Assembly: GCA_963728635.1 (NCBI GenBank)
Contig: CAVSKR010000001.1
Location: 110,116 to 174,115, forward strand
Reading direction: 5' to 3'
DNA from: an uncultured Chloroflexia bacterium
GTDB taxonomy: Bacteria; Chloroflexota; Limnocylindria; Limnocylindrales; CSP1-4
Length of the DNA: 64,000 nt
A program made the position numbers and the translations under genes. Under the pieces are notes generated by a model. The model ran no database searches. It was not told the origin of the DNA and worked only from the letters and a program-made list of their open reading frames with translations. Shown here piece after piece: positions 27,677-30,343 of the stretch (position 1 is the first letter of the stretch; the number at the start of each line of letters is the position of its first letter).

Positions 27677-27730
27677 TTGACGGTAGCCTGTTTCGGATGC
27701 AGGATACGTGCTACCGGTAGATAGCACGTA
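27677..27730 (+). promoter_or_regulatory. Promoter with palindromic operator (GntR/YtrA-like)
   Basis: TTGACG-N17-CAGGAT; perfect 9-bp inverted repeat TACGTGCTA-N8-TAGCACGTA (27705-27730). Confidence 0.55.
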
Positions 27731-27755
27731 CCGGCGTTCGACAGGGAGATGTCCG

Positions 27756-28163
27756 ATGGCCGTCCTCACCACTCACCGACACCGCCGTATCCAGTCCATC
27801 ACCCTCGTGATGCGGGCCATGATCATCGGCCTGACACTCGCCACGGCCGCGATCCACGCGACGCTCGGCGGCACGCTGTTCCTCATGAATGCGCTCGGGT
27901 ACACGGTGCTCGCGATCGCGCTGGTCCTGCCTGGTCCGGTTGCGCGCATCCGCTGGCTGACCCGCTGGGCACTCATCGGCTTCACGGCCGTGACGATCGG
28001 CGGCTGGCTGATGTTCGGAGCGCGATTCGATCTCGCGTATCTCGACAAGGGCATCGAAGTCGCGCTGATCGGCCTCCTGCTCCTCGAGTCGTGGATCGTC
28101 GACGCCGGTCCGCTCGGCGCGGTCCGCCGGGTGCGTCGCATCGCGGGTTCGATCCTCGCCTGA
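27756..28163 (+). CDS. Small membrane protein (about 4 TM helices)
   Basis: GGGAG RBS; LATAAIH...NALGY...YLDKGIEVALI. Confidence 0.75.
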   Translation: MAVLTTHRHRRIQSITLVMRAMIIGLTLATAAIHATLGGTLFLMNALGYTVLAIALVLPGPVARIRWLTRWALIGFTAVTIGGWLMFGARFDLAYLDKGIEVALIGLLLLESWIVDAGPLGAVRRVRRIAGSILA

Positions 28164-28180
28164 CGCGGCGGCAACCACAA

Positions 28181-28216
28181 CGAACGGCCGGCGGCCATCG
28201 GACCGCCGGCCGTTCG
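28181..28216. terminator. Strong hairpin after the membrane-protein gene
   Basis: CGAACGGCCGGCGG / CCGCCGGCCGTTCG, perfect 14-bp stem. Confidence 0.65.
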
Positions 28217-28256
28217 ACGTCCGCAACAGGGTTCCCCGGCGTCGTACACTGGCGAC

Positions 28257-28390
28257 GGCGCGCTCCCGCGCCCGACTGCCAGACCGAGCCCCCACGCGGC
28301 GCGGCGATGCGGCGGTAAAGGGGATCCGGATCCTCGGGACGAACCGGTCGACCATCCGACCGGCCGACGACGTGGCGGTGTGGGCGCGTG
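28257..28390 (+). ncRNA. Putative structured cis-regulatory 5' leader RNA
   Basis: -10 TACACT at 28245-28250; long closing stem CGCGCCC-G-ACTGCCA / TGGCGGT-GT-GGGCGCG; inner CCGAG/CTCGG, CCCC/GGGG and CCGGTCG-ACCATC-CGACCGG hairpin. Confidence 0.55.
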
Positions 28391-28419
28391 CGTCGACGGC
28401 CGTGACGGAGAACAGACCG

Positions 28420-29802
28420 ATGACCACCGACAAGGCCTTCAAGCGGGTCGTACGTGCGCGCATGGCCAAGACCGGCGAGCGATATGCCGCCGCCCGACGA
28501 ACCCTGGTCGAGGGGACCGAGAACGGTCACCGAGCTGAGCCAGCGGTGGACGCCGCCGACGCCGCCACCCCATCCGGTTATCGGATGCGCGGCGGCCTCC
28601 ATCCGGAGACGGCAACGCTGGCCAACGTCCTGGCGAATCAGAGTGTTGTCTCGGGCTTGACGGGCGAGCCCTTGACCGAGGCCGCGATCCTCGGCATCGG
28701 CGGCGGCCTTGGCGCCGGCTACATCCTCTGGGAGTTCCAGGCGGAACACCGCGGCAAGATCCACCGCGGTCCTGTCCTCACCCTCGGATTCCAGAACCAG
28801 TGGCAGTACCCGTCGATCCCCGGCTGGACGGGCAAGACGCTCGATCGGCTCGGCATCGAGCCCGACACGCACGAGACCGGCGGCGCGAGAGGCGCTCGCG
28901 AGGCGCTCGATGCCCGCCTCGAGGCGGGCTTGCCGGTCATCACCTTGGTCGATCTCCAGTCGATCGGGATCTGGGGCCAGCCCGACGACCTGGCGGGGCA
29001 CCAAGGCCTGGTCATCGTCGTCTTCGGGCGTGACGCCGATGCCTCGTACTTCGTGGATGATCGTGGCCGGAACCCGTTCCGAGTGTCACCGGCCGTGATG
29101 GCCGCCGCGCGCGGAAGGATCGGCTCGTTCAAGCACCGGATCGTCGCGCTGCGAACGCAGCCCGGACCGATCGCGGCTGAACGGCTTCGGGCAGCGATGC
29201 GCGCCGGCCTCGAGGACCAGGTGGATCACCTGCGATCCCAGTCCGACTCCTTCTCGCTCCCGGCCTGGCGCAAGTGGAGCCGTCTGATGACCGACGAGCG
29301 GAACGCCAAGGCGTGGCCGCGGGTCTTCGCCGACGGCCACGGCCTGTTCGGCTCGCTGTCGGCCCTCCACGAACTCGTCGACGGCCAGGTCGGGCCATCG
29401 GGCGGGCACTTGCGGGAGCTGTATGCCGCATCACTCGATGAAGCGGCCGTCGCGCTCGACAACCCTGCGCTCGGCGACGCGGCGCGGGCATGGCGGGGCG
29501 TCACCGACCAGTGGGAGGAGCTGGCCGACGCGGCCGTCCCGCCCGATCTCGACGGTGCAGCCGAGGCGGTCGAGGCGGTGGAGACACTTCACGAGGCGGT
29601 GATGGCGGGCGAACAGGGTCGGTCGCGTGTGGCCGCATCCGCGGAGACCGCGTGGGCGATCCGGGATCGTTACGCCGACGCCTTCCCCCTGCCTCCGGAC
29701 CGCATCGCGGCGATCCTGGAGGATCTCGGCGACCGGATCGGCGCGATCCACCAGGCCGAGGTCGACGCGCTCGACGTGACCGCCCGGGCAATCGGCAGAT
29801 GA
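28420..29802 (+). CDS. BtrH N-terminal/DUF4872-like papain-fold protein with basic N-terminal extension
   Basis: MTTDKAFKRVVRARMAKTGERYAAARR; GLHPETATLANVL, LTEAAILGIGGGLG, GGHLRELYAASLDEA. Confidence 0.8.
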   Translation: MTTDKAFKRVVRARMAKTGERYAAARRTLVEGTENGHRAEPAVDAADAATPSGYRMRGGLHPETATLANVLANQSVVSGLTGEPLTEAAILGIGGGLGAGYILWEFQAEHRGKIHRGPVLTLGFQNQWQYPSIPGWTGKTLDRLGIEPDTHETGGARGAREALDARLEAGLPVITLVDLQSIGIWGQPDDLAGHQGLVIVVFGRDADASYFVDDRGRNPFRVSPAVMAAARGRIGSFKHRIVALRTQPGPIAAERLRAAMRAGLEDQVDHLRSQSDSFSLPAWRKWSRLMTDERNAKAWPRVFADGHGLFGSLSALHELVDGQVGPSGGHLRELYAASLDEAAVALDNPALGDAARAWRGVTDQWEELADAAVPPDLDGAAEAVEAVETLHEAVMAGEQGRSRVAASAETAWAIRDRYADAFPLPPDRIAAILEDLGDRIGAIHQAEVDALDVTARAIGR

Positions 29803-29806
29803 GGTC

Positions 29807-30343
29807 CTAGAGGGCGGCGGTCCGCTCCTCGGCCAGGCGCTCAGCCGCGACGTCGATCGCGGCGCGGAGGTCGGAGGTCGTCGATGGGCTGGCCCAGCCG
29901 ATGGCGACCCGGACGAGATCGGACGCGCCGAGCTGGTACTCGCACGCCGCCCGGACGCGCTCGACGATGTTGATCGCGGCGATCTCATCGGTCTCCGTCA
30001 GGAGGATCGCGAACCGCGTCCGCGCGATCCTTGCGATGTGATCGCTCGAGCGAACCTCGACGGCGAGGGTCCTGGCGAGCTGCGTGAAAAGGCGCTCGGA
30101 GACGTCGACGCCCCATTTCCGAGCATGGCGGTCCAGGCCGACGAACTCGATCAGGACGACGGTCGCGGGCCGCGCGTAGCGGTTGACGCGTGCGACCTCG
30201 CTCGAAATGACGCGGTCCCACAGGCGGGGCCCGTCGGTCCCGGTGAGCGCGTCGTTCCAGCCGGACGGGATCGAGGGCAGCAACCCGCCATCTGTCCCGC
30301 CGTCGATGATCTCGACCTCGTTGTGATGCGGGTCGTTGTACAC
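29807..30343 (-). CDS. Stand-alone degenerate GGDEF-domain protein
   Basis: DALTG, EVARVNRY, RSSDHIARIARTRFAILLTET (GGDEF replaced by ARTRF). Confidence 0.8.
   Translation of the reverse strand: MYNDPHHNEVEIIDGGTDGGLLPSIPSGWNDALTGTDGPRLWDRVISSEVARVNRYARPATVVLIEFVGLDRHARKWGVDVSERLFTQLARTLAVEVRSSDHIARIARTRFAILLTETDEIAAINIVERVRAACEYQLGASDLVRVAIGWASPSTTSDLRAAIDVAAERLAEERTAAL

Follow-up and report, generated by a model that had tools for sequence, protein, structure and literature searches.

A predicted double-pseudoknotted leader RNA that travels with a small basic N-terminal protein module across bacterial phyla

A leader RNA cassette in an uncultured Chloroflexia bacterium

The window analysed here is a stretch of 64,000 nucleotides (nt) from an uncultured Chloroflexia bacterium of the Limnocylindrales (assembly GCA_963728635.1, contig CAVSKR010000001.1, positions 110,116 to 174,115), the genome of which has a G+C content of 69–70%. 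Its sequence indicates that the forward strand carries, between positions 28245 and 29802, a cassette composed of a promoter, a leader RNA of ~165 nt and an open reading frame (ORF) in which a basic module of ~30 residues is joined to a cargo; the leader is one copy of a widespread, uncatalogued, pseudoknotted RNA. The ORF (28420–29802, 460 amino acids (aa)) starts with the ATG at 28420 and is preceded by a ribosome binding site, GGAG, at 28407–28410. Its product consists of the basic two-helix module (residues 1–36, encoded by 28420–28527 and delimited by invariant columns and an AlphaFold2 (AF2) model), a disordered linker (residues 37–60, 28528–28599), and a BtrH_N-like papain-fold domain (residues 61–214) with DUF4872, which together run to the stop codon (28600–29802). 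Named close homologues of the whole protein, 75–89% identical, come from metagenome-assembled genomes (MAGs) of Candidatus Limnocylindria/Limnocylindrales. A longer ORF that begins with GTG at 28372 was rejected as the gene since all eight orthologues share the ATG and an N-terminal 'MTT'; the in-frame stop found two codons 5′ of the ATG in four of the eight supports position 28420 as the start.

A first-pass annotation of this stretch had described a leader of ~160 nt with a −10 element, TACACT, and a GGAG ribosome binding site, and each of these is present. The hexamer lies at 28245–28250, which is where conservation among the orthologues begins, and a TANNNT hexamer is found in the 18-nt window just 5′ of the first helix of the RNA (P1, see below) in 87 of 97 distinct copies of the element, against five of 291 control windows of equal size placed 40–80 nt further upstream. 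The presence of this box immediately before P1 across the family indicates that the RNA begins at the transcription start, which we would place at about 28254–28257, giving a leader of ~165 nt (28254–28419) between box and ATG. A scan for the sigma-70 consensus found no promoter, and the call is based on the family-wide TANNNT test that was used in its place.

Among six orthologues the leader is 92–99% identical, whereas the coding sequences are only 86–90% identical at the nucleotide level and the DNA 5′ of the −10 box is unrelated (57–62% in forced global alignment). A seventh orthologue has a coding sequence identity of 71% and a leader identity of 80%. This pattern points to selection on the leader. 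The first-pass annotation could not match the RNA to a named family, and the same holds for Rfam 15: a cmscan of 27900–28700 in E-value mode returned 13 chance-level matches, the best of them 28 bits below its gathering score, and none of eight further leaders from other phyla, scanned with permissive thresholds, was matched over the element. Searches of the open full-text literature returned no relevant description; subscription papers and supplementary motif lists fell outside that search, so a prior description is possible.

Covariation supports a fold with two pseudoknots

Taken alone, the leader folds with a minimum free energy (MFE) of −79.8 kcal mol−1, compared with −81.6 ± 3.9 kcal mol−1 for dinucleotide shuffles (z = +0.47), a stability that 133 of 200 shuffles equal or exceed. 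Single-sequence folding was therefore dropped as evidence of structure, and we turned to alignments of homologous leaders. The first covariance model, R1, misaligned helix P4 and the 3′ half of the RNA and was for this reason replaced by R2, built from a cleaner seed alignment (A6, 29 sequences). The resulting alignment, A7, has 101 rows, of which the 95 distinct sequences were used for pair statistics, and the structure tested on it comprises helices P1 to P5 and two pseudoknots, PK1 and PK2, with 39 pairs in all. In A7, 93.0% of cells are paired, compared with 79.2 ± 0.4% in shuffles; 33 of the 39 pairs show changes on both sides (23.5 ± 1.8 in shuffles); and there are 456 compensatory cells against 121.7 ± 14.2, a number reached by none of 500 shuffles. 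Controls in which the pairing partner was slid along the same alignment gave 38–51% paired cells and 39–68 compensatory ones. Since PK1 and PK2 are absent from the annotated structure of the covariance model, the alignment was not fitted to them. The covariation in A7 thus reveals a conserved, structured, aptamer-like domain of the sort expected of a riboswitch class.

The 5′ half of the leader is made up of short helices separated by conserved single-stranded bases. P1 pairs GGCGCG (28257–62) with CGCGCC (28267–72) around the loop CUCC, and is 97% paired with three of five pairs changed on both sides; its loop provides the 5′ strand of PK1, UCCC (28264–67). P2 (CUGCC, 28276–80, with GGCGG, 28311–15) is 99.2% paired, with compensatory changes in all five pairs, and encloses the P3 hairpin (CCGAGCC, 28284–90, with GGCGCGG, 28298–304), which is 94.6% paired with six of six pairs compensatory. 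The 7-nt P3 loop, CCCACGC (28291–97), forms the 5′ strand of the kissing pseudoknot PK2. A single-stranded junction, UAAA at 28316–28319 (YAAA or YAGA in the family), leads from P2 to the P4 hairpin; in the 29-sequence seed alignment two of its three A residues are invariant and the third nearly so, and the A before P2 is also invariant and single-stranded. P4 (GGGGAU, 28320–25; loop CCGG; AUCCUC, 28330–35) is 94.2% paired with four of six pairs compensatory, and is followed directly by the 3′ strand of PK1, GGGA (28336–39). PK1 is 91% paired and compensatory in three of its four pairs, with variants that include UCCC/GGGA, CCUC/GAGG, GCCC/GGGC and CUCG/CGAG.

The 3′ half contains the local hairpin P5 (CCGGUCG-ACCAUC-CGACCGG, 28344–28363), the helices of which are weaker (87% and 74% paired), and P6, whose apical GCG/CGC stem (28375–28387) presents the 7-nt loop GUGUGGG (28378–84). 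This loop is the 3′ strand of PK2 and forms a 7-bp kissing pair with the P3 loop that is 95.7% paired, with six of seven pairs compensatory; variants include CCCACGC/GCGUGGG, CUCACGC/GCGUGAG, CCUGCGC/GCGCAGG and CCCACAC/GUGUGGG.

Of the fold drawn in the first-pass annotation, the 7-bp hairpin with an ACCAUC loop survives as P5. The remainder, a multibranch structure with a 14-bp closing stem and the helices CCGAG/CUCGG and CCCC/GGGG, is 62.1% paired in the 95 distinct homologues compared with 60.3% in shuffles, and double changes are seen in 17 of its 31 pairs where 18.3 are expected. These helices, which also clash with the covariation-supported P1, P2 and P3 and with both pseudoknots, were rejected for want of support among the homologues.

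The leader could in principle be conserved as DNA, for instance because a DNA-binding form of the module uses it as an operator or because it is one end of a mobile element; recent horizontal transfer could also produce the conservation as an artefact. Upstream neighbour genes vary between genomes of one genus, a copy of 84% identity is present in another family, and the module might be a DNA-binding helix-turn-helix, all of which would suit such an explanation. However, the compensatory changes, seen in 33 of 39 pairs, follow the fold of one particular strand and largely refute it, reverse-strand matches to the model are absent or far weaker, and the element lies downstream of the −10 box. 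Its occurrence in contigs from four RNA libraries, weak evidence in itself, points the same way, and the element has diverged too far between phyla for recent transfer to explain its conservation. We consider a DNA-level origin highly improbable.

The 3′ domain is complementary to its own initiation region

Within the leader, the anti-Shine-Dalgarno segment UCCG (28355–58) is complementary to CGGA (28406–09), which covers the GGA of the Shine-Dalgarno (SD) sequence GGAG (28407–10), and CGGUC (28345–49) is complementary to GACCG (28415–19). Both pairings are mutually exclusive with the local P5 hairpin at 28344–63. When the 24 nt that follow PK1 were paired with the initiation region of the same copy (−14 to +16), the mean duplex energy was −18.35 kcal mol−1, compared with −14.64 ± 0.30 kcal mol−1 for permuted partners, and none of 200 permutations came as low. 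Pairing of the P3 loop with the PK2 strand, used as a positive control, gave a similar result. Broken down by region, the P5 loop and anti-SD segment against the SD gave z = −9.4, the 5′ strand of P5 against the start region z = −5.2, and the two strands of the long P6 stem z = −15.6. Among eleven further region pairs, six have |z| ≤ 0.9, which argues against an artefact of base composition, and the five exceptions range from z = −4.0 to +2.2. MAFFT aligns the variable anti-SD:SD region inconsistently, so that support for this pairing comes from the permutation test and per-sequence folds and not from column-wise covariation.

MFE folding with the kissing loop held unpaired turns the 3′ domain into one long interrupted hairpin, the 3′ strand of which continues into the initiation region (28390–28422, with the AUG at 28420–22). 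Under this constraint 92 of 96 copies have four or more of the ten bases of the SD region in pairs, and 77 of 96 pair the start region. The distance from PK2 to the start codon is nearly constant, with a median of 33 nt (interquartile range 32–35). As P5 competes with the initiation-region pairing, its standing as an obligatory helix is weakened. The SD-paired fold and the fold containing P5 and P6 would fit two alternative states of a putative switch.

RNA and module occur together

A protein search showed that the first ~34 residues recur in the genome, with 71% identity, on another protein that it encodes, and that the region upstream of this second locus has the motifs of the leader. The two strong R1 matches in the genome and its two modules fall at the same two loci; a weak third R1 match (E = 0.15) lies inside the ORF of an MFS transporter and was set aside. 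In a sample of 151 genomes of the class, 23 R1 matches were found in 18 genomes and every one is followed within 12–37 nt by an ORF that starts with the module (21 of 21 if two genomes flagged unpublished are left out); two of these 23 ORFs start with GTG. A sample of 151 genomes of the phylum gave three new RNA matches, all from one genus and all followed by the module.

The converse search began from the module. A scan of GTDB species genomes yielded at least 548 loci confirmed by tblastn, and the best 80 of these, which span Chloroflexota, Actinomycetota, Acidobacteriota, Gemmatimonadota, Planctomycetota, Myxococcales, Trueperaceae, Dormiibacterota and one 'Heliomicrobium' MAG, were tested for the leader. 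R1 detected the RNA just 5′ of the module in 78 of the 80 and R2 in all 80 (E ≤ 0.0054), with a single spurious match to the reverse strand. The first-pass annotation had in part staked its proposal on genes with the module sharing a covarying structure upstream, and the 80 of 80 found here, together with the 456 compensatory cells described above, bear this part out. Searches of five whole genomes from other groups, chosen by way of these loci, gave nine RNA matches and nine module matches, eight of which coincide. Over all genome searches that began from the RNA model, the module follows 34 of 35 matches, all but the relic described below. The coupling is thus obligate in practice and holds in both directions, and that it has lasted across phyla and cargo families argues for a mechanistic dependence of RNA and module on one another, beyond shared regulation. 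From these sequences, RNA and module together are probably a portable control unit.

Several individual loci deserve mention. The second cassette of the source genome (G000:C5:925420-925681, L002/L022) has the same leader architecture and module, on a protein of 246 aa with DUF4287 and AHSA1/SRPBCC domains, and its PK1 (CCUC/GAGG) and P2 (CCUCC/GGAGG) differ from those of the window copy. The one RNA match without a module in the five-genome set (L134/L149, G205:C75:114874-115369) is a decayed cassette: what is left of the RNA is its 5′ half (52.7 bits), and this is followed directly by a remnant of BtrH_N that lacks about the first 17 profile positions and begins at position 18. The module, the 3′ domain of the RNA and the first part of the cargo domain are absent. 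The odd module match (L143, G201:C1:1774889-1774975) is weaker (E = 5e-6), and its cargo appears kinase-like by eye only. The sequence upstream of it has diverged but is still visibly akin to the leader, with a CCCCAGC...GCUGGGG pair and a GAAGGGG motif, and falls below the R2 threshold; the RNA family may accordingly extend beyond what R2 detects. In six further cassettes (L047, L051, L096, L033, L034 and L111) the ORF ends early (131–305 aa) or turns Arg/Pro-rich after the module, which suggests frameshifts, pseudogenes or MAG assembly errors.

The module is a conserved basic two-helix domain

The first-pass annotation had noted a discrete basic N-terminal module followed by a linker, and the AF2 model agrees. 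In this model, made from a 28-row alignment (mean predicted local distance difference test (pLDDT) score 87.2 for the whole protein), the module forms a helix (residues 5–18), a turn and a second helix (residues 22–36), with block pLDDT values of 86 and 79, while pLDDT falls below 50 for residues 34–48; linker length and composition vary in alignment A8. In 19 sequences M1, K5, K8, R12, R14, T18, G19, E20, Y22, A25 and R26 are invariant and T2 nearly so, such that the invariant basic residues K5, K8, R12, R14 and R26 accompany a conserved TGE-Y-AR turn and core. These features are those of a small nucleic-acid-binding domain.

A profile of the module, A3, finds 3985 clusters (at 50% identity) with E ≤ 1e-3 and 739 with E ≤ 1e-10. 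Pfam has nothing over residues 1–60, and in the ESM Atlas the best matches of the module, both with unnamed clusters, scored 0.85 and 0.76, too low to be of use. A relation to ribosomal protein bS21 was rejected, as PF01165 finds only the genome's own rpsU and hhalign of A3 against S21 gives a probability of 0.1%; mimicry of rRNA was rejected as well, there being no third strong match to the RNA model in the genome. PADLOC, the models of which cover known anti-phage defence proteins, gave no match for the window protein, the DUF4287-type paralogue or the module alone.

Conservation of the module bears on whether anything need bind the leader in trans. The leader might instead be a ligand-independent attenuator or a thermo- or stress-sensitive gate, comparable to an RNA thermometer or a ribosome standby structure, which translation of the module or its coding RNA opens in cis, the first codons lying within the sequestering helix. 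The pairing of start-proximal codons with the 5′ strand of P5 (z = −5.2), the invariant M1 and nearly invariant T2, the unremarkable stability of the single sequence, and a weak extra complementarity between the 3′ strand of the hairpin and codons 6–15 (−18.84 against −17.67 ± 0.29 kcal mol−1, z = −4.0) would be expected from such a gate. However, it is the amino acids of the module that are conserved, its codons being variable; its invariant T18, G19, E20, Y22, A25 and R26 turn and core would typify a folded domain rather than a stalling peptide; and two covarying long-range pseudoknots exceed known thermometers in elaboration. We therefore regard a gate that works purely in cis as improbable.

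The cargo varies and the papain-fold domain is probably dead

The cargo of the window protein is recognised by Pfam as BtrH_N (PF14399, residues 61–214, 45.9 bits against a cut-off of 29.7) and DUF4872 (PF16169, residues 253–391, 33.6 bits against a cut-off of 28), in agreement with BLASTP and Foldseek; the NCBIfam DarH equivalog, at 23.5 bits, is far below its cut-off of 300. AF2 places a papain-like domain and then a helical domain after the linker. The whole protein has no sequence match in the PDB. The best Foldseek matches of the model are AziU3/U2, CcbD and CtaG (8gs1, 7yn1 and 9qvj; E = 7e-8 to 2e-4), followed by C39 peptidases and phytochelatin synthase, and solved relatives are deposited, by their entry titles, as the active-site variants C19S, C11A, H128A and D144N. 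The protein is therefore like the BtrH/CcbD/CtaG/AziU3 papain-fold acyltransferases in both Pfam domains and in its structural matches, and unlike them in its active site and in its additional N-terminal module and linker.

At the catalytic position it has HPET where a canonical BtrH_N protein has HCET, as the first-pass annotation had read: BLASTP aligns P62 (codon 28603–05) with the Cys of a canonical BtrH_N protein from another genome (157.6 bits), and at least 90% of 28 module-bearing homologues have Pro in this column. The annotation had also taken the His before the VVxG strand to be replaced, and this His, which in canonical proteins belongs to a 'GGHVV' strand, is Leu in this clade and His in several others. 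The window protein thus has neither the Cys nor the His of an active BtrH/CcbD/CtaG-type acyltransferase, and these two substitutions make it very likely that the domain is catalytically dead.

The papain-fold domain is one of several cargos. In a census of 78 of the best 80 module-bearing proteins, Pfam assigned BtrH_N, with or without DUF4872, to 18, and DUF4287 and/or an SRPBCC domain (AHSA1/Polyketide_cyc2) to 47; Clp_N and a weak match to DUF1835 were found once each, and 11 had no Pfam match. Further cargos seen are WD40, OmdA, PG_binding_1, DnaJ and GerE. Since 47 of 78 cassettes carry DUF4287/SRPBCC instead, the dead papain-fold domain is no essential part of the cassette. The first-pass annotation had proposed an RNA-protein module in which the basic peptide binds its own leader and the inactive enzyme domain senses a ligand; near-obligate two-way co-occurrence over many phyla and unrelated cargos strongly supports the core of this idea, that leader and peptide form one functional module, in which the peptide would bind the RNA, and the RNA is also operator-like in pairing with its own SD and start region. 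The putative ligand-sensing pseudoenzyme is not general, most cassettes being without this domain. Cassettes with a WD40 β-propeller as cargo (L040, L041 (G057, G140) and P0181) have a fully covaried kissing pair, CCUGCGC/GCGCAGG, and PADLOC gave only a generic repeat match for this cargo.

The nature of the cargos also bears on the possibility that the leader is a classical riboswitch, in which a pocket formed by P1 to P4 binds a small molecule or ion and shifts the balance between P5 and the anti-SD:SD pairing, the module being a separate domain that travels along (a nucleoid, ribosome or membrane anchor, say, that serves in the same physiological response). A compact, multiply pseudoknotted fold with invariant single-stranded bases, a putative two-state 3′ platform that involves the SD, a position at the extreme 5′ end of the mRNA and a spread over ~8 phyla are what a riboswitch would show, and SRPBCC domains and dead enzymes are typical small-molecule binders. 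In its compact 5′-end fold, its tertiary pairing and its putative link to SD access the leader is like the SAM-II/V, preQ1-II/III and guanidine-III riboswitches; it differs from them in the obligate coupling to a protein module and in giving no match to Rfam 15 in any of nine leaders. Known riboswitch classes control diverse genes, for transporters and enzymes among others, that share no N-terminal extension, unlike the cassettes, where the module follows 34 of 35 RNA matches (the exception being the relic) and the RNA precedes 80 of 80 modules. Nor was an operon, a transporter or a biosynthetic gene seen downstream of the cassettes, and their gene contexts yield no candidate ligand. On balance we find a metabolite riboswitch unlikely, although less so than a cis-acting gate.

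A model for feedback by the module

The reading that we prefer is that the protein controls its own synthesis. The module would be a basic, helix-turn-helix-like mini-domain that a floppy linker joins to unrelated cargos. In the RNA, the 5′ domain (P1, P2–P3 and P4) clamps the 3′ hairpin domain at two points, PK1 and PK2, and the anti-SD/anti-start segment would close into the local P5 hairpin or pair with its own SD and start region; given this alternation, the element would set the frequency with which ribosomes start. The most likely trigger is binding of the N-terminal module to the folded leader, which would stabilise the closed form and so exert negative feedback on whichever protein carries the module, comparable to the repression that ribosomal proteins and phage RNA-binding proteins exert on their own mRNAs. 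Both the binding, which co-occurrence suggests, and the repression are inferred, and we put the probability of feedback repression by the module at about 0.5.

A wider formulation, which we hold a little more tentatively, is that of a portable 'operator plus tag': a mini-domain that specifically recognises its own double-pseudoknotted leader and that has been shuffled, together with it, onto at least eight unrelated protein families in ~8 phyla. Each cargo would thereby gain a built-in translational feedback, or be tethered to its own mRNA as a ribonucleoprotein.

Several points weigh against the feedback model. Because A7 was fitted to the P1–P5 model, the counts for these helices lean towards it, and because the sequences are related, significance is overestimated by the shuffles. 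For 27 actinobacterial copies RNAalifold gives a consensus with P5 and P6 and an unpaired SD, so that sequestration of the SD is argued from per-sequence folds and a permutation test that is blind to phylogeny. The module matches no known RNA-binding family, neither Pfam nor NCBIfam having anything over residues 1–40, and it could bind DNA or another RNA instead. A 5′ domain with a conserved junction and two tertiary pairings is equally typical of metabolite riboswitches and of protein operators, and as to the direction of control the data fit repression and activation alike.

The closest parallels are found among autoregulatory operators. In the leaders of ribosomal-protein genes (the S15, L20 and S4 pseudoknot operators) and in the operator of the MS2 replicase gene, which is bound by the coat protein, the product binds a structured 5′ untranslated region (UTR) at or near the SD and start codon, a contact proposed to trap or block the initiation site. 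The cassette resembles them in that a basic product, the putative binder, is encoded just 3′ of a structured, pseudoknotted 5′ UTR. Unlike them, its putative binder is a portable N-terminal tag of ~30 aa found on many non-ribosomal proteins; a search of the genome gave no similar RNA beyond the two strong matches, and no sequence relation of the module to S21 was found. Arginine-rich-motif pairs offer a second comparison. In lambda N-boxB (nutL), HIV Tat-TAR and Rev-RRE a short N-terminal basic helix recognises an RNA in the leader of its own transcript, and lambda N also represses its own translation via nutL. The cassette differs from these in that its RNA is 135–165 nt long with two or three tertiary pairings and is not a small hairpin, in that its genes are chromosomal and spread over ~8 bacterial phyla, and in that the peptide has a conserved second helix and turn. 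Nor does its leader show any sign of antitermination, a scan having found no terminator-like site on the + strand within it.

Should the pairing of RNA and module be real, it would define a new family of structured RNAs, present in hundreds of copies in soil Chloroflexota, Actinomycetota, Acidobacteriota, Gemmatimonadota and other groups, a new minimal RNA-binding domain and, to our knowledge, the first example of a regulatory RNA that spreads jointly with its protein partner in a fused cassette. Such a pairing would also provide function-agnostic handles on the DUF4287 and DUF4872 families and a compact, orthogonal peptide-RNA pair for synthetic biology. The 'operator plus tag' view, if true, would add gene regulation that evolves by cassette fusion to a new RNA-binding fold and a new RNA class. 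Even if the trigger is a metabolite, the leader would be an uncatalogued and phylogenetically broad riboswitch candidate with an unusual double-clamp architecture.

Neighbouring features and occurrence

Upstream, a 16-bp G+C-rich hairpin (28181–28216) lies between the stop codon of a membrane-protein ORF (27708–28163) and the cassette promoter. It was scored as terminator-like on the minus strand only, and probably insulates the cassette from upstream transcription. Downstream, a convergent ORF of 178 aa (29807–30343, minus strand) ends 5 nt past the stop codon of the cassette, which makes the cassette gene monocistronic.

Contigs from four metatranscriptome libraries, belonging to four studies, span the leader and the 5′ coding sequence of this gene or of close relatives. 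They are compatible with expression, if weakly so, since such contigs show neither strand, nor ends, nor true transcription; three of them continue upstream into unlike sequence, and the transcription start is not readable from them. Many soil, sediment and cave metagenomes contain 10–20% of the sampled words of 28100–29300. This is about the share of the stretch that is taken up by the near-invariant leader, which suggests that the element is common in soils.

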